The notes beneath the pieces are model-generated. The model worked only from the letters and a program-made list of their open reading frames with translations. It was not told the origin of the DNA and did not search any database. The position numbers and the translations under genes were made by a program. Positions 546-57,091 of a DNA stretch of 64,000 nucleotides are shown piece by piece. Source of the DNA: an uncultured virus (IMG/VR IMGVR_UViG_3300042475_003078). Its lineage: Duplodnaviria > Heunggongvirae > Uroviricota > Caudoviricetes. Numbering within the stretch: position 1 is the stretch's first letter; each line of letters starts with the position of its first letter. The DNA is taken from IMG/VR virus record IMGVR_UViG_3300042475_003078, one strand, 5' to 3'.

Positions 546-589
546 TTTTTGCGCTGCATTACACTCGCGCCATCGCTACGCTCCAAAAC

Positions 590-1045: not shown

Positions 1046-1057
1046 CCGAGGAATTGC

Positions 1058-2590: not shown

Positions 2591-2599
2591 GGGTCTGTC

Positions 2600-2854: not shown

Positions 2855-2856
2855 TC

Positions 2857-3015
2857 ATGCCGCAAAAACCCGGCCTCTACGCCAACATCCACGCCAAGCG
2901 CGAGCGCATTGCTGCCGGAAGCGGTGAAAAGATGCGCAAGCCAGGCGCTCCTGGCGCACCGACCGCCAAAGCGTTCAAAGAGTCGGCCAAAACGGCCAAA
3001 CCGAAGGGGAAATGA
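2857..3015 (+). CDS. Small basic phage protein (MPQKPGLYANIHAKR...)
   Basis: ATG 2 nt after the preceding stop; internal start of track ORF 2773..3015. Confidence 0.65.
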   Translation: MPQKPGLYANIHAKRERIAAGSGEKMRKPGAPGAPTAKAFKESAKTAKPKGK

Positions 3016-3016
3016 C

Positions 3017-3163
3017 ATGCCTCTGGTGAAATCCGCGTCCAAGGACGCGTTTCGCAAGAACGTGAAGACCGAAATGGCGCACGGCAAGCCGCAAAAACAG
3101 GCTGTGGCGGTGGCGTACAACACGCAGCGCATGGCCAAGGCGCCTGCGAAGGGCAAGAAGTAA
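3017..3163 (+). CDS. Small basic phage protein (MPLVKSASKDAF...KQAVAVAY)
   Basis: ATG 1 nt after the previous stop; ends 1 nt before the portal start. Confidence 0.65.
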   Translation: MPLVKSASKDAFRKNVKTEMAHGKPQKQAVAVAYNTQRMAKAPAKGKK

Positions 3164-3164
3164 C

Positions 3165-5318
3165 ATGGCACGCGACGACGGCATCAACGGGGCTCGGCGG
3201 GTAGCCGACGGCGGCTCGGACAAGTCTGAACTGCTGGCAGAAATGCGCACGCGGATGCAGTCCGCGCAGTCGGCGTTCTCGCTCACGCGGCAGGCCGAAT
3301 TGGACGACCTGCGGTTTATGGCCGGCAGCCCGGACAACAACTGGCAGTGGCCGCAGGACGTGCTTGCCACGCGCGGCAGCGTGCAGGGCCAGACGGTGAA
3401 CGCCAGGCCGTGCCTGACGATCAACAAACTGCCGCAACACGTCCGCAACGTCACCAACGAGCAGCGCCAGAACCGCCCCAGCGGCAAGGTCATCCCTGCC
3501 GACGATCAAGCCGACCCCGAGGTTGCCGAGATTTTCGACGGCATCGTGCGGCACATTGAGTACATGTCTGACGCTGACGTGGCGTACGACACGGCCTGCG
3601 ACAATCAGGTTACGTTCGGCGAGGGGTATATCCGCCTGCTGACGGAGTACTGCGACGAGGACACGTTCGATCAGGATATTCGCATCGGTCGCATCCGCAA
3701 CGCGTTCAGCGTGTACATGGACCCGATGATCCAAGACCCCTGCGGGTCGGATGCGCGGTACTGCTTTATCACGCAGGACATCACTGTCGACGAGTTCGAG
3801 CGGATGTTCCCCGATGCCACGCCGATCACGACGCTGCGCACGCAGGGCGTGGGCGATGCGTCGATGGGGTACTGGCTGAACGAAAACACGGTGCGGATCG
3901 CCGAGTATTTCCGCATCGAAGAAGAACGCGCCACGCTGAATCTCTATCCTGGCGGCTTGACGGCGTTCAAGGGGTCGTTTGAGGCCCGCCAGATGGAAGC
4001 GATGGGCATGGAACCCCTGCGCACGCGGGAGTCGTCCAAGCGCGTTGTGAAGTGGATGAAGACCAACGGTTTCGAGGTTTTGGAGGAGCAGGACTGGGTC
4101 GGGAAGTACATTCCCGTGGTGCGCGTGGTGGGCAACGAGTTTGAGGTGGACGGCGAGATCCACGTCTCGGGCCTGGTGCGCAACGCCAAAGACGCCCAGC
4201 GCATGTACAACTACTGGGTGTCTCAGGAAGCCGAGATGCTGGCGCTGGCCCCGAAGGCGCCGTTCATCGGGTACGGCGGCCAGTTTGAGGGCTACGAGAA
4301 CCAGTGGAAGACGGCCAACACGCAGAACTGGCCGTATCTGGAGGTAAACCCTGATGCCACAGACGGAGCCGGAAACTCTTTCCCGCTTCCTCAGCGAGCG
4401 CAGCCGCCGATGGCGCAGCAGGGGCTTATCGCCGCCAAGATGGGCGCCGCAGACGACATCAAGGCAACCACGGGCCAGTACGACCCGTCCCTCGGCGCGA
4501 CTTCCAACGAACGATCGGGCCGCGCTATTCTGGCTCGTCAGGCTCAAAGCGATACCGGAACCTACCACTATGTGGATAACTTGGCCCGGGCCATACGGCA
4601 TGTGACGCGCCAGATTATCGACATGATCCCGAAGATCTACGACACGCAGCGCATCGCGCGAATCATCGGCATGGACGGCCAGACAACGATGGCCAAGATC
4701 AACCCGATGCAGCCCGAGCCGGTGCGCGAGTTGAAGGACCAAAACGGCGTCACCATCGAGAAAATCTACAACCCCGGCGTCGGCCGATACGACGTTGTGG
4801 TCACCACAGGCCCGTCGTACCTGACCAAACGCCAGGAAGCGATGGATGCCATGTCGCAGATCCTGCAGGGCTCGCCGCAGCTGTGGGCCGTGGCCGGCGA
4901 CCTGTTTGTGAAGAACATGGACTGGCCGGGAGCGGAAGAACTGGCAGAACGCCTGCGCAAGACAATCGACCCGAAGTTGCTGCAGGATCAGGACGACCCG
5001 GCGTTGCAGGCTGCCAACCAGCAGATTCAGGTGCTGACGCAAGAGATGCAGGCCATGCAGCAGATGCTGCAGAACGTCCAGCAGTCGATGGAAGCGCAGA
5101 AAATGAAGGTCGACACGTTCAAGGCCGAGTCTGACGCCGAGATCAAGGCCTACGAGGCCGAGACGCGTCGCTTGCAGGCTGTGCAGACGGGCATGACGCC
5201 TGAGCAAGTGCAGGAGATCATCATGCAGACCATGCGTGACATCGCCACTGTGGGCGACATGTCCATTGCCATGCAGGGCCAAATGCCCACGGCCGCACCA
5301 CAGGGGATGCCAGTATGA
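3165..5318 (+). CDS. P22-like portal protein (module A)
   Basis: 717 aa; WQWP, RPCLTINKL, GLVRNAKDAQRMYN, SGRAILARQ and GRYDVVVTTGPSY.TKRQE motifs; Gln-rich coiled-coil C-terminus. Confidence 0.9.
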   Translation: MARDDGINGARRVADGGSDKSELLAEMRTRMQSAQSAFSLTRQAELDDLRFMAGSPDNNWQWPQDVLATRGSVQGQTVNARPCLTINKLPQHVRNVTNEQRQNRPSGKVIPADDQADPEVAEIFDGIVRHIEYMSDADVAYDTACDNQVTFGEGYIRLLTEYCDEDTFDQDIRIGRIRNAFSVYMDPMIQDPCGSDARYCFITQDITVDEFERMFPDATPITTLRTQGVGDASMGYWLNENTVRIAEYFRIEEERATLNLYPGGLTAFKGSFEARQMEAMGMEPLRTRESSKRVVKWMKTNGFEVLEEQDWVGKYIPVVRVVGNEFEVDGEIHVSGLVRNAKDAQRMYNYWVSQEAEMLALAPKAPFIGYGGQFEGYENQWKTANTQNWPYLEVNPDATDGAGNSFPLPQRAQPPMAQQGLIAAKMGAADDIKATTGQYDPSLGATSNERSGRAILARQAQSDTGTYHYVDNLARAIRHVTRQIIDMIPKIYDTQRIARIIGMDGQTTMAKINPMQPEPVRELKDQNGVTIEKIYNPGVGRYDVVVTTGPSYLTKRQEAMDAMSQILQGSPQLWAVAGDLFVKNMDWPGAEELAERLRKTIDPKLLQDQDDPALQAANQQIQVLTQEMQAMQQMLQNVQQSMEAQKMKVDTFKAESDAEIKAYEAETRRLQAVQTGMTPEQVQEIIMQTMRDIATVGDMSIAMQGQMPTAAPQGMPV

Positions 5319-5677
5319 GTTGCGAGAAGTTTATCGGCCAGCTGTTTCTGGCGCGGGATTGCGCTCATTCGACCCACCTCAACACACGCTCGTACGCCAA
5401 GCACAAGGCGCTGGCCAAGTTCTACCACCAGATCATTGACCTGGCAGACAGTTTTGCCGAGGCGTATCAGGGCAAGTACGGCCTGATTGGCCCGGTGGAA
5501 CTGCAGCAGGCCACCAAGACGAACAACGTGGTGGAGTTTCTTGAGGACATGGTGCAGACCATCATGGACACCCGTTACGATGTCGTCGAAAAAGAATGCA
5601 CGCCGCTGCAGAACATCATCGACGAGATTCTGGCGCTGTTTTACAGCACCCTGTACAAGCTGAAATTTTTGGCTTAA
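5315..5677 (+). CDS. Ferritin/Dps-like four-helix protein (DUF5856-like)
   Basis: H..H..T.SYA.HKAL..FY....D..D.FAE.YQG pattern, ending YKLKFLA. Confidence 0.65.
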   Translation: MSCEKFIGQLFLARDCAHSTHLNTRSYAKHKALAKFYHQIIDLADSFAEAYQGKYGLIGPVELQQATKTNNVVEFLEDMVQTIMDTRYDVVEKECTPLQNIIDEILALFYSTLYKLKFLA

Positions 5678-5686
5678 AGGAATATC

Positions 5687-6115
5687 ATGGCGTCGTACAA
5701 CAAGTTTAACGACTTTTCTGAGCAGCTTGTCGAAGGTGTCCATGATTTTGGCGCCAACACGTTTAAAGTTGCCTTGAGCAACTCTGCGCCAATAGCATCA
5801 AACACCGTGTTGGCCGACATTACACAAATTAGCGGCACCAACGGCTATACCACTGGCGGCACGGCAACGACAATTTCTTTGTCGGAAACAAGCGGCACCA
5901 CAACGGTAAACGGCACTGAGGTGGTGTTTACGGCTTCTGGCGGAAGCGTAGGTCCGTTTCGTTACGTTGTGCTTTACAACGATTCCGCCACCTCTCCGCT
6001 GGACGCGCTGGTGGCTTGGTGGGACTACGGCAGCAGCATCACGCTAGCTGACGGCGAGACGTTTACCGTCAAGTTTTCGAACACAACGCCTGGGGCAATC
6101 TTCACGCTGGCTTGA
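5687..6115 (+). CDS. Virion structural protein preceding the tail fibre
   Basis: HDF..NTFKVAL, GYTTGG and GAIFTLA; beta-rich; AAGGA RBS. Confidence 0.65.
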   Translation: MASYNKFNDFSEQLVEGVHDFGANTFKVALSNSAPIASNTVLADITQISGTNGYTTGGTATTISLSETSGTTTVNGTEVVFTASGGSVGPFRYVVLYNDSATSPLDALVAWWDYGSSITLADGETFTVKFSNTTPGAIFTLA

Positions 6116-6336
6116 TCATGATCAAGATTGATTTTGAGTTTGACACCCCTCACGGCAAGTTTGCCGATGCTCTTCATCTGCCTGATGATCACGGCTTCAG
6201 CGAAGCTGAAATCCAGGCGATGAAGGAGCAGCGTCGAGACAACTGGATTGCTGTGGTGACTGCGCCTCCTGTAGAGGTGGAGCCAGAGCCGGAGTACATT
6301 GAGATTGATGGCGTTCGTTACGTGAAGGCAGTGTAA
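6112..6336 (+). CDS. Small hypothetical protein (possible fibre-associated)
   Basis: 74 aa, coupled to neighbouring ORFs. Confidence 0.6.
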   Translation: MIMIKIDFEFDTPHGKFADALHLPDDHGFSEAEIQAMKEQRRDNWIAVVTAPPVEVEPEPEYIEIDGVRYVKAV

Positions 6337-17155: not shown

Positions 17156-19591
17156 ATGAAAACATCCTTTACCTCTAAGCAGCGTGAAATACTAGCTCGT
17201 AAGATGGGCTACGACGGCCCTATGCAGGGCTTTGATGACTTTCTTAATAGCTCACCAGCGTTGATGATGAAGTACAACGCTGTGACGGATAAGTATGCTC
17301 AGAGGATGGCTAAGGGAGGGTCTGTCACGGGTTATGCTGTGGGTGGTGTTGTTAGCTATGAAGAATGGCTGAAGACAGCGCCTAAGACTCAGAGAAGAGC
17401 TTTTGGTGGTACAAGGGCACTGACTGAACAAGAACTCCGTGATAACTACGAAAAATATCGTCAAAATCCTACAGGCGCCGGTGAGAGTTTTGCCACTGAC
17501 ATTACACCACCAGAGCCAACAGAACAGCAACAAACGACAGCACCTGCGCCAGCACCTGCGCCAGCACCTACCTCTACGACTAACATCACCCTTCCAGGCG
17601 TTAGCACTGGAACTACACCTGTCACTGTTTCTCCTAATGTGTCTCAGCAAATGTCTGAGATGGGTCCGTTTCCTCGAGGGACAGCGCCAGCACCTGCGCC
17701 AGCACCTGCGCCAGCACCTGCGCCAGCACCTGCGCCAGCACCTGCGCCAGCACCTGCGCCAGCACCTGCGCCAGCACCTGCGCCAGCACCTGCGCCAGCA
17801 CCGAGCGTCACAGGCGGTGGTGACGTCACCTTCAGCGAAGAACAAGGACGCACTGGTACACCTTCACCAGGTGCTGCTGCTGGCTTCACCCCTGCAACGA
17901 CATCAATTACACCGGGGCAAGACATCTCGGGTGTAGGGGGTGCTGGCACTGCTAAGACGGTGACAGATATTAAGACAGCAACGGCTGAAGAAGCAAAGAT
18001 GCCTGCTGCTATCACAGCAACGACAATGGAGGCGTCTAAGTCTGCTGAAGGTGTTAAAGGTGTATTAGAGGGAACCAAGCCACTTAGCTTTGAAGAGTGG
18101 AGTAAAGATAAGGTTTTTCCTGCTGTTATAAGAATAGGGCCCGATGGAGAACCTATTGATGCCGCACGAGAAGGATATGAAGAATATGTCAGAACCTTCA
18201 AACCTGAAGGCGGTGTTCAAGCTGTAAAAGGCACTGTCAGCAAAGAAGCTCAAGTTGATGCAGCACAAAAAGAACCTACAGAGACTGTTCTGTCCGACCT
18301 AGAAGCAGAACAGCTTGATAAAGCTAGAGAGGTTCAAGCACCTCCTGAACTCACTGTAGGTGCTGGTGAGCTTTTGGACAAATCTGCTGTCAATATGGCT
18401 AAGGTTGATGAAGCCATTGCCAAGACAAAGGAAGAAGCTGCACAAGGGGTTGTCTCTGAAGACATGACCGTACAGGGCCAGCTTACGAAGCTCACAGCAA
18501 ATTTTGATGCTAAGAATCCTCCTGGCTGGGCCGCTGGCGCTCTGCGTGTAGCTACAGCCACATTGGCACAGAGAGGCTTAAGCGCTTCTTCTATGGCAGG
18601 CGCTGCTATTGTCCAAGCAGCTATTGAGTCGGCCTTACCTATTGCAACTACCGATGCTAAAGCCTATCAAGCAATGGCTGAGCAAAATTTAAGCAACAGA
18701 CAAGCAATGGCTGTGCTGGCGGCACAACAAAGAGCCGCTTTCTTAGAACAAGAGTTCAACCAAGAGTTTGAAGTGAAGGTGAAGAATGCTGCTCGCATTG
18801 CTGACGTTGCCAATATCAACTTCACAGCTAAACAACAAATTGCGTTAGAGAACGCCAGGCTAGCTCAGTCTGTGGATTTGGCAAACTTAGAGAATAGACA
18901 AGCTGTTGTCATCGCTAAAGCGGCTCAGATGGCTACGTTAGAAACCACCAACCTAACCAACCTACAGCAAGCTGCTGTTACAAATGCTCAGTCTTTCTTG
19001 GCAATGGATATGGCAAACTACGACAGAGAGCAGAAGACAACACTGTTTAAGACAGAGCAACTTGTACAGTCATTGTTGTCTGACACAGCGGCTGAGAATG
19101 CTGCTAAACAGTTTAACGCAGCAAATAAGACTCAGGTAGATCAGTTCATGGCGACTCTTGCTTCTACAATATCTCAGTTTAATGTAGCTCAGCGTAATGC
19201 TCTAGCTCAGTTTAGTACAGATCAAGTGAACTCAGTCACAAAGTTCAACACTGAACAAGAAAACCTGAGGGATCAGTTTAACTCTACGCAGCGTCTCGTC
19301 ATCGATCAGAGCAATGCTCAATGGCGTAGAGAAGTAAGCACTGCTGACACTGCTGCTCTCAATGTTGCTCTGTATTTAGGTGCTCAGAATTTGCAACAGA
19401 TGACGTTGGCTGAGTACAATAATGAGACTCAACTCTATCGAGATCAGATTGAGAAGGTGTGGTCTAGCTTTGAGAAGAATGAAGATAGAAGAGCAGAAAT
19501 ATTAAAAGCAGAAATCAGCGGTGCCGCTGCTGAAGACGCCGCCGAGGCTGGACTATGGCAGAGTATTGTTGGTGGGCTGATGAAGCTCTGA
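17156..19591 (+). CDS. Internal virion/ejection-type protein with (AP)n linker
   Basis: 811 aa, Ala/Gln-rich with QFN repeats in the C-terminal half; position among internal virion genes. Confidence 0.7.
17684..17803 (+). repeat. 12-bp tandem repeat GCGCCAGCACCT x10, encoding (AP)20
   Basis: Read directly; a shorter copy lies at ~17539-17569. Confidence 0.95.
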
Positions 19592-43523: not shown

Positions 43524-44136
43524 GATGGTGCTTCGCTTTCTTTCTTTCAGTGGGTTATTTGTAAATGATGTTGACCATGTTGTCTCTGTTGAGACGGACA
43601 GATGAGACGTTGTTATCTCCGAGGATGTTGGACAAGATGATAAAGGATGTTGCAGACTCAGCGTCAGGAAACAGCCTCATCTCTTGTCTTCCATCGAAGT
43701 AGGTCCAGAAGAGTTTCAGCATACCTTGTTCCGATTTGTCGACAATTATTCTTCATTACCTTCATCAAAGAACAACTCATCCCATTCTTCTGGAGTGATG
43801 CCGGAGATAATGAATTCTCTTTCATCGTTGGTGAGTTGAGGAAATATTTCCTGCACCAGCCCTTTACCATCGAAATAGGCATCGAGTTGCTCTTGCGTGA
43901 CGTCCATGTCCCAATGACGGGTGATGTTGGAATAGCTGCTGCGACGGGTAACCAACATGACAATGTCTCCTATCAGAAGAACAACACGATGCCGATGACA
44001 ACACCGGCAAGGAAAGACACCGCCAGACGACGACGCTCTGTCGCCACCGGCACCACTGCACGGGAATGGAAGCTTCCACCGATGGCCAATGAGGGGATGG
44101 ACCAGAATGTGATGCCGCCGTTGACGTTGATCTTGA

Positions 44137-44484
44137 TCATAGTGTGAGTTCCTCCGGGATGTCCACCTCTTCACCGAGGCGGGAAGCAACGAAGCAGCGC
44201 ATGGCCGCGATCAATGGCGTGGGTCCACTTATAGGTCGATGCGAATCGGGCTCTGGTCCCGCCCACCAGTCCCCTATATACGAGCGGTGCAGACGAATAC
44301 CCTCCCGCTCGATGATCGGCCCGCCCTGGGCCCAGTTGGCTGAAGGGCTCCATGCTATGTCCTGACCATCCGCATCCGCATAACGAACCGGCAAATCATT
44401 TTCCAGATATTCATCCCAGCCTGCACACTTCGCCACCGCCCAATCAAGGGCGGGGCCGGTGAGTTCTTGAGTCTTGATCTTCAT
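44137..44484 (-). CDS. DUF2591 (NinX-like) phage protein
   Basis: L.G.ALDWAVA, PS.NW.QGGPII and GPTPLIAAMRC motifs. Confidence 0.75.
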   Translation of the reverse strand: MKIKTQELTGPALDWAVAKCAGWDEYLENDLPVRYADADGQDIAWSPSANWAQGGPIIEREGIRLHRSYIGDWWAGPEPDSHRPISGPTPLIAAMRCFVASRLGEEVDIPEELTL

Positions 44485-44572
44485 TTCCGTGGCTACGTGT
44501 CGATGTTGAGATTATTAGCGTCTGTGTTTTATTGGTCTAGTTGATTTTCACTATCGCGTCCTGGCCACCGTT

Positions 44573-44647
44573 AGATGATGCCTATCAGCATCAGATGATG
44601 CCTATCAGCATCAGATGATGCCTATCAGCATCAGATGATGCCTATCA
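44573..44647. repeat. 20-bp tandem repeat AGATGATGCCTATCAGCATC x3.75
   Basis: Read directly; each unit contains a TGATGC/GCATCA inverted repeat. Confidence 0.92.
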
Positions 44648-44704
44648 CCATGAGGATGATGATGGCGACGGCGAAGATGGCGATGCCTAAATCATCGGGG
44701 TGCA

Positions 44705-45256
44705 TCATTGTTGCCCCCACTGTTGGGACATAGCAGCAGCGATGCCAGCATAGGTGGCACTACGGATCTTCCAGCGATCAGGCGACGGGGGCAGTTTCCA
44801 GATACGCTGTTCACGACCACTGACAACATCCGTCGGGGTCAACAGAGGCAGACCCTTCAACCATAAGCATGTTGCCTTTGTCTCACCATGCCCAAACATC
44901 CACGGTTGAATCACTTGGTCGGGTTTGCGGATACGGGATGAAATGATGGAAACAGGGTTTTCAATGCAGATACGGGGTATCGGAGCACCCATTAGAAGAC
45001 GAACAAAGTCTAGTGCTTCCTGCTGCTGCTGCACCTTATCTTTGAACCATCTTGCACCACTGACGGCAAGATGGGTACATGGAGGATGAGCAATCATCAT
45101 GTCCCAGCCGTCACCAATGATGTCTGTCACATCCCCTTGATAATGGGGACCGGGGACTTCTGTCGGCAGTAGGTCACAAGACACTGCGTCATGCCCTGCA
45201 TTGATGAATGCGTCACGAACAGTGCCACTATATTCACAGGCTATGAGGATACGCAT
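44705..45256 (-). CDS. Small C5-methyltransferase-like protein
   Basis: L.ACE.SG, SCD, HPPC, IENP and K.TCLW motifs; 183 aa. Confidence 0.75.
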   Translation of the reverse strand: MRILIACEYSGTVRDAFINAGHDAVSCDLLPTEVPGPHYQGDVTDIIGDGWDMMIAHPPCTHLAVSGARWFKDKVQQQQEALDFVRLLMGAPIPRICIENPVSIISSRIRKPDQVIQPWMFGHGETKATCLWLKGLPLLTPTDVVSGREQRIWKLPPSPDRWKIRSATYAGIAAAMSQQWGQQ

Positions 45257-45267
45257 GATGGTGTTTC

Positions 45268-45795
45268 CTACACAGACATGGTGACAAAAACAAAGACACC
45301 CATTTTCTCTACACCGATAATGGTGTAACCATTGGATTCTGCAATGGTTTCATAGTCTTCGTCGGTGACCCAACGATCGATGATGGTGTCACCGTCATAC
45401 AGGGAAATGTCGTTTAGCATGATAGCTCCGGGTTCGTGACAACGAAAGTTTATTAAATGGCACCATTTGATGCCATTGGTATAAACCCTCACCTATCATT
45501 GCACGACGATGAGGGATCCGGCAGCATTGGCACGCTGTGCGCCGGTCCAGCCAGTGTGTATGCTGGTGATGCGGCCGTCTGGGGCAACCGTCAGTTCTAC
45601 ATACTGTATCTGGCAGCGCCAGCGGTAGCTGTTGGGGACAAAGCCCGCGCCTGAGTAGACACGCACACGGCGTTTGGCAGTGCTAGCAGCCCGTAGGGCG
45701 ATGCGAACGCGCGTCCAATCACACGCCCTGGCGGTACGGGTTGCGGGCTGAAGCGACGCGCGGATGGTGCGCAGTTGGTCTCTCAAGTGCAGCAT
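45268..45795 (-). other. Two small early hypothetical CDSs (45268-45492, 45496-45795)
   Basis: Packed minus-strand ORFs; AAGGA RBS before 45795. Confidence 0.55.
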
Positions 45796-45878
45796 GGTGT
45801 TTCCTTTCTTAGGGTCTGTCACAAACAATGGTGTTTAGTGTAGGGGCAGCATTGACGCTGCCCCATAGGTGTTTACCC

Positions 45879-46706
45879 TTAGTGGATAGCGATAGCGATG
45901 ACCCTGCCCTTCAGAGAATCAAGCATACCGCATGCATGCCCTTTCCCTGTGCAAGATCCACACTTGCCCGGGCAAGGGAAGATACGCTCATTTGACTTGA
46001 TGCGCAGGGCATCATTGACGGCCTTAGTGCCGTGCATATTCGACTTCACCTTAAACCCGACAGACACTGCACGAAACTCACCACGGGTAACCGGCAGGGT
46101 CTTTATCATATTGACAGTGTCGACAGAATGATTGTGTCCTGAAGACACGTTAAGGGCATAGTTGATTGGATAGTCGCCAGTGTAGGCGAGCAATTCTGCA
46201 AACGATTTGCTATATCCATATGCTTTGATGCCGGGACGCGAGAGTAACAGAGAAAACCAAAAGGATACATCGGACACGGAGGAAAAATCCCCGTCAACGT
46301 ATAGACGGAAATCTACACCATCAGGCATAGCATTGAATGCTGCCTTGATGGTATTGGGATAGAACCGCATCAAGAATGCGTTTTGCACTTGACGGGCAAA
46401 TGCATCGGGATACCGCCATGCCCGAAAGGAATAGCAGAATTTGAGACACTCGCCAGCGCCCGGACATGTGACACCGGGAAGGGAAGAAAATGCATAGAAC
46501 GGCAGTTTACTATTGCCATCGGATTTAATGACGGTAAGTTCTGGCTTGCCGGTGGTGAAGACACGGGAAAGGCGGGCAAACGAACGTTGCCATCCGATCG
46601 ATTGGAAACGTTCATCGGCACTCAGGGTTTCAAGGGTAGCAATGATGGCATCGATGCTGCCATTCTGCACTATGGAAGCAAAGGCGCGGAGAGCATGGGT
46701 TTTCAT
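45879..46706 (-). CDS. GP88-like Fe-S/radical-SAM-like protein
   Basis: GN.KL...FS...G.TCPGAGECLKFCY, FR...GDF, Y.YSK and C-terminal CPGKC..C.....C motifs. Confidence 0.7.
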   Translation of the reverse strand: MKTHALRAFASIVQNGSIDAIIATLETLSADERFQSIGWQRSFARLSRVFTTGKPELTVIKSDGNSKLPFYAFSSLPGVTCPGAGECLKFCYSFRAWRYPDAFARQVQNAFLMRFYPNTIKAAFNAMPDGVDFRLYVDGDFSSVSDVSFWFSLLLSRPGIKAYGYSKSFAELLAYTGDYPINYALNVSSGHNHSVDTVNMIKTLPVTRGEFRAVSVGFKVKSNMHGTKAVNDALRIKSNERIFPCPGKCGSCTGKGHACGMLDSLKGRVIAIAIH

Positions 46707-46783
46707 GGTGAGACTTCCTTTGTTTGCGGGTTTATGAAGATTTATTCTAAGGGACAGATTGTTCTGCCCTATAGGATAAACCC

Positions 46784-46996
46784 TTATGCTTGATCGATAG
46801 CAAGCAACAGCTTGCTCACGATGGTCTTGTAATTACCTTCGTATGCATACTGTGCGTCCCTGAAGAATGTGCGCTTTCTATCATCATTGATACGCAGGGA
46901 AAATTCCACGAAGTCAATGAAGACACTGGCACGCACATATGGGCGCACCTTTGCCTTTACGGGCGGGTTTACGCGGGTGACGGTGACGGCTGACAT
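46784..46996 (-). CDS. First leftward early gene, hypothetical
   Basis: Start MSAVTV within track ORF 46784..47059. Confidence 0.5.
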   Translation of the reverse strand: MSAVTVTRVNPPVKAKVRPYVRASVFIDFVEFSLRINDDRKRTFFRDAQYAYEGNYKTIVSKLLLAIDQA

Positions 46997-47074
46997 GGTG
47001 AGTAGTCCGGTGGGTTTGTGTTTCGACGGGATTGATTTCAGCATGAAAACGCAGGGCATGCCGATATCTTATCA

Positions 47075-47111
47075 ATTGAAATTTTCTATCGGGCTGATAG
47101 TTTTTTTCTAT
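47075..47111. promoter_or_regulatory. OxyR-type box
   Basis: ATTG-N7-CTAT-N7-ATAG-N7-CTAT; 15/16 match to ATAG-N7-CTAT-N7-ATAG-N7-CTAT. Confidence 0.7.
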
Positions 47112-47209
47112 CTGGCCAGGGCGTGTGCGTATGCGTGCTGGCGCGTGCTGGCGTGTGCGTGCGCGTACATGCGCATGCTGGCGCATGCTTGTTGTAATGA
47201 GCACGCCTA

Positions 47210-47226
47210 AGCAAACGTCATGCCAA
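47210..47226 (-). promoter_or_regulatory. Sigma54 -24/-12 element
   Basis: TTGGCATGACGTTTGCT (GG-N10-GC). Confidence 0.55.
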
Positions 47227-47381
47227 GCTTCTAAGGGTTTACCCGCGAAAACGCGCCAGTGGCGATAACTAAATTTTCGAAGGGTAAGGCATGGCTTGGG
47301 GGTGAAAACGTCCTGCAGGCGTTTTTGACGCGTTTTGGAGGCATCGGGTAATCCCTAATGGTTTTGTTGTGCAGTGCAGCA

Positions 47382-47397
47382 TGGCATGGTGTTTGCT
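47382..47397 (+). promoter_or_regulatory. Sigma54 -24/-12 element
   Basis: TGGCATGGTGTTTGCT (GG-N10-GC). Confidence 0.55.
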
Positions 47398-47532
47398 TCG
47401 TGCGCGTGCTGGCGCATGTGCGCATGCTGGCGCGTATGTGCGCGTGCTGGCGTGCTGGCGTGGCTAATGAGAATGTGTTCGCATTAGCGTATGACATCGT
47501 TAGTGTGCTGATATGTTTGTGGACATATATGG

Positions 47533-47548
47533 ATACCCTATGGGGTAT
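47533..47548. promoter_or_regulatory. CsoR/RcnR-family-like operator
   Basis: ATACCC-TATG-GGGTAT palindrome with C/G tracts. Confidence 0.5.
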
Positions 47549-47553
47549 GTACA

Positions 47554-47568
47554 TGAGAATCATTCTTA
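47554..47568. promoter_or_regulatory. Fur-box-like site (weaker copy at 47466-47485)
   Basis: TGAGAAT-C-ATTCTTA versus the 7-1-7 consensus TGATAAT-N-ATTATCA. Confidence 0.55.
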
Positions 47569-47577
47569 TCTGTATAG

Positions 47578-47641
47578 TTATCCACAGGTTATCCACAGCT
47601 TCGTACACAGCCTCATTAACCTGTGGATAACCTGTGGATAA
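47578..47641. promoter_or_regulatory. Four perfect DnaA boxes (two direct, two inverted)
   Basis: TTATCCACA at 47578 and 47589; TGTGGATAA at 47622 and 47633. Confidence 0.85.
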
Positions 47642-47706
47642 CTCACTAACTGGTCTGAAAAACATACCAAAAACCGCCTATCTCGGAATGTTCAAGTTGA
47701 TCAGGC

Positions 47707-47719
47707 TAAGTTGTTGATT
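47707..47719. promoter_or_regulatory. IHF consensus site
   Basis: TAAGTTGTTGATT is the reverse complement of WATCAANNNNTTR. Confidence 0.65.
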
Positions 47720-48015
47720 TCATTGGTATTTGATGTTGCCAATTGCTGATTCTGATCCTGTATCTGCCATCTTGCCGAGGGCAAAACCGATCGATGCCAG
47801 CCGTCGAAGGTGGGGGAGGCGTGGGCCAGGCGGGGGTAGGGCGTACGTTATATACAACATCGCCCACAGATTAGGAAAAATAACGTTGCCTTCACCACCC
47901 CTTACACGCCAACACCGACACGTAGCTATATCCCACCTATACAGCCTTCAACACCAACACCGACACGTAGCTACACAGCCTTCACCACCATCATTAACAA
48001 AAACATCACCTCTGC

Positions 48016-48045
48016 TTGACATCACCATCTTTTCTATGTTACAAC
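48016..48045 (+). promoter_or_regulatory. Sigma70-type promoter candidate for the rightward arm
   Basis: TTGACA-N18-TACAAC with extended -10 TG. Confidence 0.45.
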
Positions 48046-48672
48046 CTACCCTATGCCACAGGGACGTCTACACCTGGCTGTGGCTGTGTTATTAAAGATG
48101 CCTACCAGGGGTGAGCGACAAAGGCATCAACGAGGGGCTGAGGTTTAGAACGTGTCGTGGGAGGCTGTGGTGAGCTTCAATAGTCTGAACCGTACACCAA
48201 CAATAGCTGGTCTATGCTAATGAGCATAGTAGGCGAAGCTGTGTCTAAACAGTATTTCATAATGTAAAATTGACTGTTAAGACACCGTCTATATAGATAG
48301 TAAGCATAACATCAAATCCCTAATATTTATTTCATTGATGTCTTCTCCTTACAGCACTATATAGAAGCAACATTAGCGCTAATAGAATAACAATAAACAT
48401 TCATTGTTTTTCTTAAGAAACAACATTAACGCTAACAAAATATTCATTGTTATTTCTTAAGAACAACACTAGCGCTAATAGAATAACAATTGTTGTTTCT
48501 TCAGAACAACATCAGCGCTAACAGAGACAACAGCATCTATATAGTCTATATAGTAACAACACCGACACGTAGCTATATAGTCTATATAACCCCTAATGAA
48601 CAGCGATAGCTTATGTTGCCCAGCGAAGCTGTGTTGTCCCTTCAGGGCTCTTAAGAGCCTTCAACAAAAACA

Positions 48673-48921
48673 ATGACACCATCAACATTTCTTAAGAGCA
48701 GATATAAAACAAGAACAGAGCTTGGAAACAGAGTTCATCAATTCCCTTATTCTGTTTTTAGTGTTGTGATGGATGAGTTGTTTAAGAAGGAAGAAAGAGT
48801 TGGTAGTGTTGGTTTTCATTCCGATGTTTATTACATCAGGGCTCTGATAGAGAAGAGAGAAGGTGTTGTGTTGCCTTTATGGGTGGTGCAGAAGGCAATG
48901 AAGCAAGAAGGGATGTGTTGA
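48673..48921 (+). CDS. Hypothetical protein
   Basis: First ORF of the rightward arm. Confidence 0.55.
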   Translation: MTPSTFLKSRYKTRTELGNRVHQFPYSVFSVVMDELFKKEERVGSVGFHSDVYYIRALIEKREGVVLPLWVVQKAMKQEGMC

Positions 48922-48922
48922 T

Positions 48923-49444
48923 ATGCCCACAAAAGAACGCTGGGCTAAAATGTCCGAAGAAGAGAAACAAAAATATACAGAGCGACATCGAGAATGGGTG
49001 TCTAAAAATAAAGAACGTAGTAGAGAGATTTGCAGAAAAAGCTATTTAAAAAAAGTAGGAGGTGTTCTTTTTAGGCTTTCAACGTTAGAAGATGAAAAAG
49101 TTAAGAAAGAACACAGAAAGAAAAGAAAAACAGAAACAACTATTCTGTGGCAAAAAGCCAACCCAGATAAGGTAAAGCTTTATAGAACAAAAGAGAAAGA
49201 AGAAGGAAAACAAGCAGCTAAGGCGGCTAAAAGGAGAGCTGCTAAATTAAATGCAACGCCTGCTTGGGCAGATTTAGAAGCTATAAAAATAGTGTACGAA
49301 GAAGCTAAGATGGCAGGCATGCACGTAGATCACATAGTTCCTTTGCAGGGCTTGAATGTTTGTGGTTTACATATTGAAGCAAATTTACAGCTTTTAGATC
49401 CAATAGAAAATATCAAAAAGGGGAATAAGTTTGCCTTACAGTAA
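48923..49444 (+). CDS. Free-standing HNH endonuclease
   Basis: KRRA.KL..TP.W, HVDHIVPL.G..VCGLH...NLQ and N..K.NK motifs; AT-rich. Confidence 0.88.
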   Translation: MPTKERWAKMSEEEKQKYTERHREWVSKNKERSREICRKSYLKKVGGVLFRLSTLEDEKVKKEHRKKRKTETTILWQKANPDKVKLYRTKEKEEGKQAAKAAKRRAAKLNATPAWADLEAIKIVYEEAKMAGMHVDHIVPLQGLNVCGLHIEANLQLLDPIENIKKGNKFALQ

Positions 49445-49706
49445 AACAGTTAATGGTGTTTCTACCCGTGACTATAGACGCCAATATGACAAATATGACG
49501 GCAAGCCTTCTGTTGTTGCTGACAGAGCCCAACGTAACGCTGCTAGAGCTAAGCTGAAGGCTTCTGGTGTTGATGTTGCTGGTAAGGATGTTGCTCACAA
49601 GGTGGCGTTGTCTAAGGGCGGTAGTAATGAAATGAAGAACTTGTCTGTTCAGTCTAAGGCTAAGAACAGGAGTTTTAAGAGAGATAAGAATGGGACTATG
49701 AAATGA
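49431..49706 (+). CDS. Small basic HNH-like protein
   Basis: GKDVAH..ALSKGGSN...NL.V.....NRS. Confidence 0.6.
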   Translation: MPYSKTVNGVSTRDYRRQYDKYDGKPSVVADRAQRNAARAKLKASGVDVAGKDVAHKVALSKGGSNEMKNLSVQSKAKNRSFKRDKNGTMK

Positions 49707-52208
49707 AAGACAGCAGGCTTGTCAGGGCTGGTGTTAGCGGCTATAACAAGCCTAAGCGTACCCCAGACCATCCTAAGAAGAGTCACGTTGTTGTTGCTAA
49801 AGAGGGTGACACAGTGAAGACCATTAGGTTTGGACAGCAGGGTGTTTCTGGTAGCCCAGCTAAGCAGGGCGAGTCTGATGCCTATAGAAAGCGTCGAGAG
49901 AGCTTCAAATCCAGACACGCTAGTAACATAGCCAAAGGAAAGCTGTCTGCTGCTTATTGGGCTGATAAGGTGAAGTGGTAATGGCACGCACTAACGAAGC
50001 TCTATGGGAGAAGGCTAAGGCAGAAGCCAAAGCCAAGATGGGTGGTAAACACTCGGCAAGAATGATGCAGCTTGCTGGTCGCATTTACAAAGACAAAGGC
50101 GGCAGCTACAAAGGACCAAAGACAGAGGCTCAAAAGGCTATGTCGAAATGGACGAAGGAAGAATGGACAACATCTTCTGGGAAGCCTTCTGAAGGGAAGC
50201 GTCGTTATTTGCCTAAGGCTGCCTGGTCTTCGTTGTCTGCTTCAGAGAAGGCAGCAACTAACAGAGCTAAAGCTGCGGGAGCTAAGCAAGGGAAACAATT
50301 TGTTGCTCAGCCTAAGAAGGTGGCTGAGAAGACGGCTAAATATAGGAGTTGATATGAAGTGTGGTACAAAGAAGATGGCATACGGCGGTATGGCAACGCC
50401 TATGCAGCCTAAGAAGCCTATGGCTATGATGGCCAAGGGTGGTGTTACACCCGCCGCCCCTCGGGTGGCGAATTGCGGTGCTTCAATGAAGCCTCAACAA
50501 CAAAGGAAGAAGTGAAATGGCTACGTTCAAGGAAGCGTTTAGAGAAGCCAGAAACGCTGGCAAGAAGACGTTTACATGGCAAGGTAATAAATACACCACT
50601 GAGTTGAAGGAAGAGGCTGCTACAAGGGCTCCTAAAGCCTCTGCTGGCCCTCGTCGTACAGCAAAGGAAGACACAGGTTCTGATGCAATGCTTCAACGTA
50701 TGAAGTCTCGTTCAGAGCGTGGTATGAGAGTACGTAGTAATGAAGAGATGCGTGATAGATATCGAGACGAAGCTATTGGCTACGGCACCGCCGCTGCTGG
50801 ATTAGCTACAGGCCCTCTTCGTGCTTTGTCGGGAGCAGCAGCTAAGAAGTCATCTGATAGAATGACAGATGAGCTTAAGAAGCGCATGTCGCGTGAAGAA
50901 CCTAAAGGCGATGTTGGTGTTGAAATTAAACCTGCTGTGTTTAGACGTCTTAGAGAAGAAGCCAAAGACCCTCTTGAAGGTCGTCGTGTTGGCGATGTGT
51001 CTAAGGAGTTGAAGGAGCAGGCTAAGAGAGAAGCTGAGAGAGCCGCTACAAAGCGTGCAACACAGTTTAGAAGCCGCACTGCCGATAGAATGGATGGCTT
51101 TGCCAAAGGTGGTTTGGCTAAGAAGAAAAGGAAGAAATAATGCCTGCAAAGAAGTTTATGCCTTGTGAAGATTGTCCCAACCCTGCTGCTTGCAAGAAAG
51201 CAGGGAAGTGCATGATGACGTCTAGCAAGGCTAAGAAGCCTCAACGAGGCGGTAAGCAATCCTTAGCCATTATGGTGGCTGTTGGTGTGCCTAAGAAGGG
51301 AAAGAAGTAATGGCTACGAAGAATCCTGTCAAAAAGGCTAAGGAAAAGTTGAAGGAGTCTGCGGCGGGTTCTGGTAAGCGTTTCGGTGAAGAGAAGCCTG
51401 TTCAACGTAACGTTAGAAGCAAAGGCCCTAAGCCCAATCGCTCTCCTGATGAAAGCAATGCCAACAGATGGGCTGCTGATGTTAAAGAAGACGTTGTCAA
51501 GTCGCAGAAGACAGACATTGAGAGACTTCGTAAAGGCATCAGCGGTAAGGCCAAGGAAGGTCTTACACAGGCCCAGGCAGACTTTGGTAGAAAGCAGACA
51601 AAGGCATCGGCTGTTAGAGGTGCTCTTCGTACTGCCAGTAGATTAGGCTATCTTGGTGGCGCTGCTGGTGCAGGCTATCTTGCTGGAGACACTGCTAAGC
51701 AGCTTTATGACAACGCTAAAGAAGGCAGGCAGCGTCGTCGTATGCAAGAGGAATATGAAAAAGATTTGGACAAGCAACGTGACATCATGGACAGAGAAGA
51801 TGTCATTGGCCTGCGTAAAGGCGGCATGGTAAAGAAGGGAAAGAAGTAATGGAAACAGCATCGAAGAAGAAGCCGGTGAAGCAGCCGTCAAAGACAAAGC
51901 CTACAAAGGCTGAGAAGCCTGTCTACACCTTTGACGACACGAAGAACAACACCTCCAGCAAAGCTGCTAAGGAAGCCATTAGAGAGCTTCGTGATGCAGA
52001 GATGCGTCGTAAGATGGGTGAGCGCTATGACGAAATCGTAGGCAAGCCTGAGATGGCTAAGGGTGGTGCTGTTCAGAAGAAGATGTCTAAGGTGATGGGT
52101 GAGTACAAAGCAGGAACGCTTCGTAGTGGCGGTACAGGCAAGGCTGTGAAGAACCCCAAGCAAGCCGTTGCCATTGGGTTGTCTGAAGCTCGTCGTCTGA
52201 AGAAATAA
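49703..52208 (+). other. Run of seven small, highly basic CDSs (49703-49981, 49981-50352, 50354-50515, 50517-51140, 51140-51310, 51310-51849, 51849-52208)
   Basis: Stop/start coupled (TAATG etc.) and Lys-rich; 51140-51310 (CEDC...C....C) is absent from the track. Confidence 0.7.
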
Positions 52209-54357: not shown

Positions 54358-54906
54358 GTGGCATCAAATGATAGAGATTTAGGCGCTTGGATTCTTCCAC
54401 AACCGATACGATATGAACGTTATGTGGCTATTCCCAGAATTGTTCAAAGCAACGTTGTTCCTTTTGGTTATAGAATCGATGATGAAGACCCCTCACTTCT
54501 ACAGCCAATCACTAAAGAGTTGGATGCGCTTGAGCTTGCAAAGGAGTATGTAAAACGATATTCTTACAGAAATGTAGCAGCGTGGCTGTCTAAAGAAACC
54601 GGAAGGAGCATATCTGCTAATGGACTTAGACACAGAATCAACACAGAAATTGACGCAAGAAAGCGCTATAAGTTTTATAGAGCCCTTGCAAGAAAGTACA
54701 AAGAAGCCCTCAAGAAGGCCAAAGAGTACGAAGAAAGACTCGGGAAGACAGAAAAGACAGAGTTCTTCGAAACCGGAATCTACACCGAAATTAGTAGAGA
54801 CTGGGATGCAGAACTACAAAGTGAGCATACCGGAGGAGATGCAAAACGAAAACATCGTTTTTCAGCCAAATCCAGGACCACAAACGGCATTTTTAGCAGC
54901 ACCTGA
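54358..54906 (+). CDS. Hypothetical DNA-binding-like protein
   Basis: PFGY and SYR.VA.WL...TGR.IS..GL motifs; overlaps TerL exon 1. Confidence 0.6.
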   Translation: MASNDRDLGAWILPQPIRYERYVAIPRIVQSNVVPFGYRIDDEDPSLLQPITKELDALELAKEYVKRYSYRNVAAWLSKETGRSISANGLRHRINTEIDARKRYKFYRALARKYKEALKKAKEYEERLGKTEKTEFFETGIYTEISRDWDAELQSEHTGGDAKRKHRFSAKSRTTNGIFSST

Positions 54907-57091
54907 AAGGGAAGTTCTCTTCGGAGGAGCTGCCGGTGGTAGAGGTCAAGGCCTTTCTCTTGCCACCTTTCATTGGTAACAATGTCAAAATAAACTTCGT
55001 GAATTGCTGGAACGTTTTGTAACGTGACCGTGCTACAGCATAACCGGCGACGGTAGGTGCGAATGCTAGAAAAACGATCACCAGAAACTATCAGCAGCCA
55101 AGCAAGTCATTGACTTGAAGGTTCAGAGACTATCCCGTAAGGGAGTACACCGAAAGGTGGAAGCGCGAAGCCCCTGTAAAGGGTGAAGATATAGTCCGAG
55201 GCGCACTAACCAGCTATAAGCTGAAGGAGCATACATGACACAGTATTGCCTATATAAAGCCACATCTCCGTCTGGAAAAGTCTATGTTGGTATCACCAAC
55301 AATTTCAAACGAAGAATGAAAGAACACCGAACCAGCAAGTATCCATTTGGTGCTGCTCTTAGAAAATACGGAATAGATTCTTTTGTTTTTGAGTTTGAGT
55401 TGTTTGAGTGTGTGGAAGATGCTTTAGCAAGAGAGCAAGAATTAGCTAACTTAGACACCTTGGACAAAGAAAAGATGTACAACATCAGCGTCGGTGGGGT
55501 ATTTGCGAATGTCCTAAAAGATCAAAATCCGATGAAAAACAAAGATGTTGTTGACAAACATCCTAATGTATGGAGAAAAGGCAGTAAAAACAATCCTATA
55601 TTGAACCCTGAGATTAAAGAAAAAATGATTAAGTCTCAGAAGTGTAAAAAGGTATCAATAGATGGTGTTATTTACTACGGCGTTAGGGAAGCAGCAAGGC
55701 AGTTGAGCATATCTAGGCAGTTGGTTGTCTATAGACTCAAAGCCAAGAGCTTCGATACGTGGTTTTATGTGAAAGAACAATAGTGCGCCTCGGGAAAAAG
55801 TTACGCAATCTTAGCTGACCCATTACGTTACATCTCTCATCCGCAGTTTTCAGGGCTTCTGTTGCGTCATACAACAGAAGAACTAAGAGAACTCATCTGG
55901 AAAAGCCAAGAACTCTACCCAAAAATCATTCCAGGTATTGTTTGGAGTGAGAGAAAGATGCAATGGGTGTCGCCAAGTGGTGGCAGATTGTGGATGTCAT
56001 ACCTCGATAGAGACGAAGACGTTCTTAGATATCAGGGTTTGAGCTTCGTTTGGGTTGGTTTTGACGAACTCAGCCAATGGTCTACGCCTTTTGCGTGGAA
56101 CTATATGCGTTCTCGCCTCAGAACAGCAGCGTCTGACCTGCCTGTTTACATGAGAGCAACGACTAACCCAGGCAATGCTGGTCATGGGTGGGTTAAGAAG
56201 ATGTTCATTGACCCTGCACCACCTGGTCAAGCCTTCTGGGCAACAGACATTGACACTGGTGAAGTGTTACGTTACCCCAAAGGACACAGCAAAGAAGGTC
56301 TGCCGTTGTTTAAGCGGCGTTTCATCCCTTCAAGACTCTCTGACAACCCCTATCTTGCTGCCTCAGGCGACTACGAAACCATGTTGTTGTCGCTTCCGGA
56401 GCAACAACGTCGTCAACTTCTTGATGGTGACTGGGATGTTGCTGAAGGTGCCGCGTTTCCTGAGTTTAAGAGAAGCGTTCATGTCGTTGATTCCTATGAC
56501 ATTCCTCATGATTGGCCTAGATTTAGAGCCTGTGACTACGGATATGGAAGCTGGTCTGCTGTTTTGTGGTTTGCTGTAGCCCCAGATGAGTCATTAGTGG
56601 TATATAGAGAGCTATATGTCACTAAAGTGCTTGCAGAAGACTTGGCAGAGATGGTGTTGAACGCTGAAGACGGTGAAAAGATACGTTATGGTGTTCTAGA
56701 CAGCTCTACATGGCATAAAAGAGGCGACACAGGCCCTTCCATTGCTGAAAGAATGATAATGAAGGGGTGTCGTTGGCGTCCTTCTGACAGAAGTGCTGGT
56801 AGTAGAGTGTCTGGTAAGAACGAAATACATAGACGTCTTCAGATAGATTCCTTCACAGAGCGTCCGCGTATTGTCTTTTTCAGCAACTGTGTTAAAACTA
56901 TTGCTGAACTACCAACAATACCTCTAGATAAGAAGAATCCAGAGGACATTGACACCAACATCAACTTTGATCACGGATATGACGCATTGAGATATGGTGT
57001 AATGTCAAGACCGAGGAGTAAAAACATCTTTGACACTAATACATCGGGGCAGAGCGGCTTCGCTCCAGCATCGAAAGTTTTTGGATACTAG
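54806..57091 (+). CDS. terL: Terminase large subunit (module B), spliced: exon 1 54806-54940 + exon 2 55793-57091 (~477 aa)
   Basis: Joining restores FGGAAGG|GKSYAIL (Walker A); Walker B GFDEL, TNPG, DYGY and DHGYDALRY. Start codon uncertain. Confidence 0.92.
54941..55792 (+). mobile_element. Group I intron (IA2-like) in terL
   Basis: Exon ends in U and pairs with IGS GCCACC (54962-54967); P 55002-55012, Q ~55090-55099, R GTTCAGAGACTA 55121-55132, S AAGATATAGTCC 55186-55197; terminal G at 55792. Confidence 0.93.
55235..55783 (+). CDS. Intron-encoded GIY-YIG homing endonuclease
   Basis: CLY.......VYVGIT.....R...H with conserved E and YN; C-terminal NUMOD1-like HTH; AAGGAG RBS. Confidence 0.88.
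   Translation: MTQYCLYKATSPSGKVYVGITNNFKRRMKEHRTSKYPFGAALRKYGIDSFVFEFELFECVEDALAREQELANLDTLDKEKMYNISVGGVFANVLKDQNPMKNKDVVDKHPNVWRKGSKNNPILNPEIKEKMIKSQKCKKVSIDGVIYYGVREAARQLSISRQLVVYRLKAKSFDTWFYVKEQ

Follow-up and report, generated by a model that had tools for sequence, protein, structure and literature searches.

Why should a phage concentrate recognition sequences for several regulators of its host at the point where its own two gene arms diverge? The question is raised by a 64,000-nucleotide (nt) stretch of DNA from an uncultured member of the Caudoviricetes (IMG/VR record IMGVR_UViG_3300042475_003078), here called the window. Positions 47060 to 47730 form the left part of a 1.6-kb gap (47060 to 48672) between a leftward early/replication arm (25549 to 47059, minus strand) and a rightward structural arm (from 48673, plus strand). 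This gap is probably noncoding, because its five overlapping open reading frames (ORFs) have no PHROG match and part of it is exchanged in two close relatives (loci L001 and L002). A first-pass annotation, made from the sequence alone, had listed a dense series of host-regulator sites in the region and had offered three readings: a sponge that titrates host factors, a host-state sensor, and a protein-loading zone at a DNA end. Every sequence that it listed lies where it had been placed, and its observation was largely right for four host factors, namely, sigma54-RNA polymerase, DnaA, Fur, and integration host factor (IHF). The core of the observation was reinforced by family-wide enrichment of the sites and by a test of the Fur box in bacterial genomes. 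We give about an even chance to the reading that the region would act as an early promoter gated by the state of the host, and possibly also as an origin region, rather than as a sponge. Of the three earlier readings, the sensor fits best, given the recurring order and spacing of sites beside the early promoter and the NtrC-like sites of some relatives.

The window represents an HMO-2011-type podophage of lake water with a genome of about 65 kb, and its DNA was found again in many lake-water metagenomes. Its portal protein shares 66% identity with that of Puniceispirillum phage HMO-2011 and 54 to 70% with those of Roseobacter CRP phages. A nucleotide search of the gap against cultured phages gave no match, the GP88-like protein of the early arm had no match among cultured phages, and the divergence gap of HMO-2011 itself contains neither a DnaA cluster nor a sigma54 motif. 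The nearest virus record (G001) is without this region, phage DSL-LC04 has a virion protein in common and a different layout, and a second flank protein used as the query retrieved one distant locus only. With the GP88-like early gene (45879 to 46706) as the query, 49 viral loci were obtained, of which 40 were kept as nonredundant. Close or exact duplicates (L002, L005, L007, L029, L038, L039, and L042), loci with no upstream DNA (L043 and L047), and L050, which came from a second query, were left out. In each retained locus, the 1,300 nt upstream of the GP88-like gene were analyzed (the relatives' gaps; 49.6 kb in all, 40% G+C), and per-locus counts refer to 41 loci, i.e., the 40 relatives plus the window. 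Dinucleotide shuffles served as the background (60 for the relatives' gaps and 300 for window positions 47060 to 47730).

Against this background, DnaA, sigma54, Fur, NtrC-type, and IHF motifs were enriched 7- to 90-fold in the relatives' gaps. Sixteen control consensus motifs were mostly found at 0.3- to 2-fold; the highest value, ~6-fold, belonged to a CRP pattern, which may overlap the DnaA boxes. The high motif density described in the first-pass annotation is therefore above composition-matched background for sigma54, DnaA, Fur, and IHF. These sites are present far above chance and recur in order and spacing among the relatives.

Two predicted sigma54-type -24/-12 promoters, both reading TGGCAT-N5-TTGCT, were identified by motif scan, shuffles, and alignment. 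P_L (47210 to 47225, minus strand) points into the early arm, and P_R (47382 to 47397, plus strand) points toward the structural arm. They are inverted copies of each other, part of a 21-nt inverted repeat, and represent the only two exact matches to TGGCAN-N5-TTGCW in 64 kb, with 172 nt from start to start. Both have the -24 GG and -12 GC of a sigma54-dependent promoter in the TGGCAC-N5-TTGCW register. Two or more such motifs were found in none of the 300 shuffles of 47060 to 47730, and 14 were observed in the relatives' gaps (shuffle mean, 0.58), which bears out the two divergent sigma54 elements proposed earlier. The motif is kept in 12 of the 40 relatives although the flanks diverge (13 of 41 loci with the window), and in 10 of these 13 loci it is aimed at the early gene. 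A purine follows TGGCAY in all 14 nonredundant instances (read by eye), in agreement with the sigma54 consensus. Because a sigma70 scan of the minus strand from 46500 to 47300 found no sigma70-like site, P_L is the only recognizable promoter ahead of the early arm. RNA-library contigs reach 48109 to 52000, with nothing over 44000 to 47470, and are uninformative on either sigma54 promoter. None of the 80 window ORFs matched Pfam or PHROG profiles for an RNA polymerase, a sigma factor, or the Sigma54_activat domain, and a sigma54 DNA-binding domain is encoded by four of five candidate betaproteobacterial host genomes.

The 156 bp between P_L and P_R (47226 to 47381), a candidate enhancer region recognized from alignment to L003 and from inverted repeats I13 and I17, are the best-conserved block relative to L003 (71% identical overall). 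They contain AAAACG/CGTTTT dyads together with TAAGGGTTTACCC. The element TAAGGGTTTA (47232) is kept in L001 and L003 and has two substitutions in L002, and its 9-mers occur in 12 to 14 of the 40 family gaps. By alignment, the TGC-N3-GCA sequence at 47367, labeled PhaR-like in the first-pass annotation, is the conserved flank of the -24 element. In the relatives' gaps, NtrC-type palindromes with at most one mismatch were observed six times (shuffle mean, 0.25). Tandem copies lie near a sigma54 motif in L006, L008, L009, L010, and L019; in L006 and L008 they precede the promoter by 25 to 65 nt, with a second sigma54-like motif ~100 nt downstream of it.

The Fur box of the window (47552 to 47570; core, 47554 to 47568) matches a 15-mer found in the family and in bacteria, TGAGAATNATTCTCA, at 14 of 15 positions and thus has the 7-1-7 inverted repeat of a Fur operator. 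Two Fur-like boxes had been proposed. The one at 47554 held, and the second, at 47466, is by comparison with the box of L021 a degenerate palindrome (47463 to 47488) with one good half-site, on the left, and a spoiled, 3-nt center. The Escherichia coli-type Fur 19-mer has no match in the window at up to three mismatches. The Fur-like matches in the relatives are one 19-bp palindrome, AATGAGAATCATTCTCATT; with the 15-mer (up to two mismatches), 18 sites were observed in the relatives' gaps (shuffle mean, 0.20), and a Fur box is present in 17 of 41 loci. At least 120 bacterial genome stretches contain this exact 19-mer, with many from Burkholderiales, Nitrosomonas, Methylophilaceae, and SAR86 among the matches listed. 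We examined 80 loci from these listed matches, with 135 ORFs that face away from the motif and begin no more than 350 nt from it. An iron/metal uptake domain was found in at least one adjoining outward ORF at 43 of the 80 loci, or 47 if four further loci with solute-binding proteins of ambiguous specificity are counted. The 43 loci encode a TonB-receptor plug (14 loci), FeoA/B (8), FTR1 (5), HemP (5), ZnuA (5), Fur (3), and, at one locus each, an Fe2+ transport protein, a ferritin, and a siderophore-type oxygenase. Since the exact sequence stands ahead of iron/metal uptake genes in 43 to 47 of 80 bacterial loci, the family palindrome is, as judged from sequence and gene context, a genuine bacterial Fur box. 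Its position varies. In L021, the box occupies an operator position ~20 nt past the -12 element, and in L006, a weaker Fur-like site (two mismatches to the 13-mer core) begins 7 nt past it. The window box is neither at nor just downstream of a promoter, being ~155 nt past the -12 element of P_R and ~330 nt upstream of P_L.

Beyond the Fur box lie four perfect DnaA boxes within 64 bp, found by repeat and motif scans and compared with shuffles. They are arranged as two tandem pairs in opposite orientations, each with an 11-bp period, one on the plus strand (47578 to 47597; boxes at 47578 and 47589) and one on the minus strand (47622 to 47641; boxes at 47622 and 47633), and one other perfect box exists in 64 kb. 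This part of the earlier description stands, as none of the 300 shuffles reached four boxes and the relatives' gaps contain 36 (shuffle mean, 0.45). Across 460 kb of the relatives' loci, 40 of 45 perfect boxes are inside the gap. Clusters are present in 13 of 41 loci, and the arrays in relatives consist of 4 to 9 perfect boxes spaced 11 or 19 to 22 bp apart. A DnaA cluster and a sigma54 motif occur together in nine loci (Fisher p = 0.0009, a value that ignores relatedness). DnaA itself was considered as the sigma54 activator and set aside, because NtrC-type sites co-occur with DnaA arrays. In sequencing run X7, DNA contigs break at 47349, 47479, and 47617, and the high depth at 47471 to 47737 stems from DnaA boxes of other organisms. 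The IHF consensus site (47707 to 47719, minus strand) had also been singled out. Taken alone it is unremarkable (three matches in the window versus 2.4 expected), but it belongs to a block conserved in relatives, whose gaps contain 29 IHF sites (shuffle mean, 3.85); the site is present in 23 of 41 loci.

The sites recur in the relatives in the order IHF, Fur and/or DnaA, sigma54, and early gene. The window follows this broad pattern in that Fur, DnaA, and IHF sites are all upstream of P_L (330 to 500 bp), with IHF the farthest, and departs from it in that the Fur box is nearer to P_L than the DnaA boxes are. The same sites are also 155 to 320 bp downstream of P_R, in its path of transcription. 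In L010, L035, L021, and L026, the nearest DnaA-type box, which is perfect in L010 and L035 only, ends 28 to 32 nt before the -24 element. Upkeep of motifs in relatives, on which the earlier proposal depended, was thus found for sigma54, DnaA, Fur, and IHF, all enriched at the same place, and failed for an OxyR-like box described below.

Part of this equipment is exchangeable. Blastn break points and the sequences themselves delimit a swappable 211-bp cassette (47461 to 47671) that carries both Fur-like boxes, a palindrome ATACCC-N4-GGGTAT, the four DnaA boxes, and a palindrome TGGTCTG-N5-CATACCA. L001 is 99.6% identical to the window over 45794 to 47460 and 88% identical over 47672 to 48927. 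Between these segments, L001 and L002 have a replacement (L001 positions 5069 to 5244 and L002 positions 5383 to 5530) made up of extra 10-bp repeats, three to four copies of TGTCATCCGA, and a TTGTATA..TATACAA palindrome, together with a sigma54-like motif, the third, that has one mismatch. With their 10-bp period, the TGTCAT direct repeats of this alternative cassette resemble response-regulator sites of the PhoB kind. L003 has the same frame with two perfect Fur boxes and no DnaA box. Low-complexity spacers had been said to separate parts of the region, and these are real arrays of GCGTGCTGGC with a 10-bp period, whose copy number differs between near-identical phages. The left array (47120 to 47193, plus strand; mostly alternating purine-pyrimidine) contains three copies of GCTGGCG, and the right array (47400 to 47462, plus strand), which is expanded in L001 and L002, contains four copies on the same strand as those of the left array.

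What best fits these observations is an early-control region that borrows global regulators of the host through exchangeable input modules; the presence of an alternative cassette at the same place in near-identical phages supports this account. Under it, host sigma54-RNA polymerase would sit on both divergent -24/-12 promoters as closed complexes, and a host enhancer-binding ATPase would be needed to open them. Relatives carry NtrC-type sites for such a protein, and in the window the activator may bind the conserved inter-promoter region. IHF would bend the DNA, and the swappable cassette would add a Fur box as an input for iron status and four DnaA boxes as inputs for replication or growth status. 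The nutrient and growth state of the host would thereby decide whether the phage starts or restrains its early and rightward transcription, and the module of DnaA and IHF sites may contribute to opening the DNA for replication as well. The binding of the host proteins, the sign of their effects, and any link to the choice between lysis and lysogeny are inferred; the phage carries an integrase and is possibly temperate.

Several observations weigh against such gating. No NtrC-type palindrome with two or fewer mismatches is present in the window, which leaves it with no recognizable enhancer site, and no phage-encoded sigma54 activator was found among its 80 ORFs. The motif counts include loci of shared descent, and the spacers of 28 to 32 nt between DnaA-type boxes and sigma54 motifs are partly homologous, so that these cases are not fully independent. 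Each single site type is missing from about two thirds of the relatives, and therefore none is essential to the family. Positions 330 to 500 bp upstream of P_L or 155 to 320 bp past P_R are not classical operator positions. Arrays of four to nine perfect DnaA boxes exceed the usual input of a promoter and look more like origin or titration arrays. Finally, the Fur and IHF sites of one relative (G407) are inside a terminal repeat, hinting at a role at the DNA end.

Two known types of regulatory system come close to the proposed host-state gating. Sigma54-dependent nitrogen promoters of the glnAp2 type combine NtrC sites, IHF, and a -24/-12 element. The window resembles these promoters in the correct -24/-12 spacing, the purine after TGGCAY, and the IHF sites, and its relatives add NtrC-type palindromes. 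It differs in being a divergent pair in a phage early region with no NtrC-type site of its own, and DnaA-box arrays occupy the upstream position of the enhancer. Host nutrient regulators are also known to act on phage genes, as exemplified by NtcA and PhoB sites in cyanophages and by Fur control of stx1. Lambdoid coliphages are reported to have a Fur box upstream of a phage-borne sitABCD operon (PMC6969025). As in those phages, a consensus host-regulator site in phage DNA would tie expression to nutrient status. The sites in those phages govern cargo or auxiliary genes, whereas those of the window are in the early-control region of the whole genome, combine several regulators, and are exchangeable as a cassette.

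The region might instead be a DnaA-dependent replication origin built on the DnaA array and the IHF site, and/or a pair of divergent promoters that prime bidirectional replication of the T7 type. This is a possible explanation, if not a probable one; the other sites would then be incidental or would regulate initiation, and the idea is compatible with a host-gated promoter. The origins P1 oriR and RK2 oriV work through arrayed consensus DnaA boxes, and in T7 two promoters together make up the primary origin. The window shares with P1 oriR, RK2 oriV, and datA the tandem and inverted consensus boxes with IHF close by (66 bp from the boxes). Four perfect boxes with a regular period form the cluster expected of an origin, and the 4- to 9-box arrays of relatives are of the same kind. 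The region, where the arms diverge, is also close to the lowest value of cumulative GC skew, but the skew is confounded by gene orientation. By Pfam and PHROG profiles, the leftward arm encodes a T7-type primase-helicase, a family A DNA polymerase (PolA), a 5'-3' exonuclease, an integrase, a ribonucleotide reductase, ThyX, PhoH, and MazG, and no recognizable initiator. Unlike in P1 oriR, RK2 oriV, and datA, no Rep-type initiator gene (Pfam/PHROG) or recognized iterons adjoin the boxes. No marked AT-rich tract that could serve as a clear unwinding element is found beside them. Close relatives have not kept the boxes: L001 and L002 are without any, though their flanks are 86 to 99.6% identical to the window (99.6% for L001), and 28 of 41 loci have no DnaA cluster. 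Because L001 and L002 lack boxes, DnaA cannot be required for replication in this family.

A second alternative develops the protein-loading zone of the first-pass annotation. Host proteins loaded beside a genome end would anchor, stall, or protect the entering DNA. In addition, the GCTGGCG arrays would serve as Chi-like signals that counter RecBCD, with the sigma54 promoters facing inward, and the whole would resemble the injection-stop region with DnaA boxes proposed for T5. We regard it as doubtful. Its fullest form, to which we give equally little credence, holds that, within ~700 bp of the terminus, IHF, Fur, and DnaA sites load host proteins that anchor and shield the end, GCTGGCG(C/T) repeats are so oriented that they switch off RecBCD arriving from it, and inward-facing sigma54 promoters decide by ATP-dependent activation on the entry and expression of the remaining genome; swapping the protein-loading cassette would then change which host state permits infection. 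One weak lead comes from G407 (the L020 contig; 57,812 bp, complete by CheckV), the identical 233-nt ends of which take in both the IHF site and the Fur box of this phage. On its inner side, this repeat stops in a block common to the window, L001, L003, L008, L020, L026, L032, and L048. This boundary maps just after 47827, which makes the family-conserved block at 47780 to 47880 a weak candidate for a packaging or terminus site. In addition, seven contigs stop 587 to 1,437 nt upstream of the early gene. Terminal repeats were found in this one contig only, so the earlier proposal has a lead in a single relative, and hypervariable repeats by themselves would break assemblies here. G408 (60,015 bp), a record nearly identical to the window, comes from a closed assembly cut at another place; its closure relies on a ~147-nt overlap at an arbitrary position, and a terminal overlap can therefore be an assembly artifact. 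A scan for the conserved terminus block returned mostly unrelated GC-rich matches, and one look-alike contig was just a fragment.

The unit of the repeat arrays contains GCTGGCGC, which one preprint reports as the Chi sequence of Pseudomonas syringae RecBCD (bioRxiv 10.1101/266460). The window arrays hold four exact GCTGGCGC octamers and three GCTGGCGT variants, all on the plus strand. Within these arrays, GCTGGCG always has the same orientation (the window has 7 copies, L001 has 14, and L002 has 8) despite the inverted promoters, an orientation that suits an enzyme entering at 47828 and moving left. These arrays are confined to the window, L001, and L002. The over-representation of GCTGGCGC in candidate hosts, where it is three to five times commoner than a reversed control, is not decisive, as codon usage could explain it. 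A second GCTGGCG array of the window is merely an Ala-Pro coding repeat: positions 17540 to 17800 are an (Ala-Pro)n linker with a 12-nt tandem repeat in an 811-amino-acid (aa) ORF, containing 12 GCTGGCG words on the minus strand. For T5, a preprint reports a noncoding terminal region with eight DnaA boxes, arranged as inverted pairs, and DnaA is proposed there to stop injection (10.1101/866236). The window resembles that injection-stop region in being long, noncoding, rich in repeats and palindromes, and possibly near an end, with paired DnaA boxes in inverted repeats. T5 has eight boxes, a defined terminal repeat, and two-step injection, whereas the window has four boxes and a putative terminus and belongs to an unrelated phage type. 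Inverted DnaA pairs are thus present, and the 233-nt repeat of G407 excludes that phage's DnaA boxes.

Titration, the first of the functions proposed earlier, would have the sites act as decoys for DnaA, Fur, and sigma54 holoenzyme as the genome amplifies. The sites are perfect or near-perfect matches to consensus, which would imply high affinity, and DnaA arrays reach seven to nine boxes. Precedents exist in that multicopy Fur boxes derepress Fur-controlled reporters in the Fur titration assay and that DnaA boxes stand together with an IHF site in the E. coli datA locus. A genome with one to two Fur boxes and one to two sigma54 sites has few to offer, however, and a sponge has no need of an order and spacing that recur relative to the early promoter. 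There are also no scattered extra copies, since the perfect DnaA boxes of the relatives' loci are concentrated in the gap as described above. The multi-regulator sponge received no specific support, and we consider pure titration, the least supported functional reading, to be quite improbable.

Some of the regulators named at first did not withstand comparison. The OxyR/LysR-like tetrad pattern (47075 to 47111; repeat family D15) is present at 15 of 16 tetrad positions (one match versus 0.01 expected). It can alternatively be read as two direct repeats, TTTTCTATC(G/T)GGC, 22 nt apart, and in the two nearest diverged relatives it is broken by 6-nt and 3-nt insertions (L002) or unconserved (L003). 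The palindrome ATACCC-N4-GGGTAT (47533 to 47548) had been labeled CsoR/RcnR-like; L003 keeps its arms with a 3-nt spacer in place of the 4-nt spacer, and the label is unsupported. The palindrome TGGTCTG-N5-CATACCA (47651 to 47669), noted from the sequence, is imperfect, with 6 of 7 positions complementary. With the OxyR and CsoR inputs unsupported and the PhaR input no more than putative, the array would sense fewer signals than had been listed. The lack of support for these three labels and for the TGGTCTG palindrome, and an IHF consensus that alone is not rare, are what could be said for chance, i.e., for matches without any host-factor role that arose in a spacer rich in AT and in repeats. 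We consider this explanation highly improbable, since the 7- to 90-fold enrichment set against 0.3- to 6-fold for 16 controls already contradicts chance for the four main site types.

Phages of the HMO-2011 type are among the commonest phages of aquatic bacteria. A limited literature search found no description of sigma54-type early promoters or of Fur/DnaA arrays in this phage group. By term search, the words promoter, intergenic, origin of replication, and terminal repeat are all absent from the main comparative paper on these phages (PMC9038755). If the host-gated promoter is real, infection or lysogeny in this freshwater branch would be conditional on the iron, nitrogen, and growth status of the host, and this would matter for the effect of nutrient limitation on viral mortality in lakes. 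In near-identical phages, the existence of two alleles of the cassette constitutes a natural experiment. Weak hints of a host in the Burkholderiales, such as Polynucleobacter, come from the Fur-box variant, the lake origin, and one binned contig. Among 401 genomes of the order of G002, a gene related to the GP88-like gene is present in one, where it lies on a 6.3-kb contig assigned to a Polynucleobacter bin. This related phage fragment (L175; G002 contig C69, 6,351 bp) has the same IHF block, AATCAACAACTTA.

Other features surround the region. The first ORF of the early arm in the ORF list (46784 to 47059, minus strand; 91 aa) has no Pfam or PHROG match. To the right of the array, a sigma70-like promoter (TTGACA, 18 nt, TACAAC) is followed by a structured RNA candidate of ~200 nt (48016 to 48250, plus strand). 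The candidate was found in L001, L002, L003, L006, L008, and L016, and RNAalifold predicted 42 pairs, 14 of which have compensatory changes. It has no Rfam match, and an Rfam E-value scan of 46500 to 49000 returned hairpin-type microRNA false matches only; RNA-library contigs from two studies over 48109 to 48379 are a weak sign of transcription. Three 43-bp tandem repeats follow at 48395 to 48523, each with a TGTT..TTCTTAAGAA..AACA palindrome, and repeated CTATATAG motifs and three copies of CAACACCGACACGTAGCTA (47909, 47954, and 48556) are nearby. These repeats and their neighbors look like sites for a phage protein.

By Pfam and PHROG profiles, the rightward arm encodes a terminase, an SU10-type portal and adaptor, and virion proteins, and the point of convergence of the two arms holds three tRNA genes. 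In the segment from 54358 to 57091, an ORF for a GIY-YIG homing endonuclease (55235 to 55783) with an I-TevI-type DNA-binding domain is upstream of a 409-aa terminase large-subunit ORF. The latter aligns only with the later part of PHROG terminase profiles, and the gene thus seems to be split or invaded. Window positions 1 to 6120 (62% G+C), with large ORFs that belong to no known family, are a hypervariable insertion within the structural arm; they are missing from G408, which has ~885 nt in their stead.

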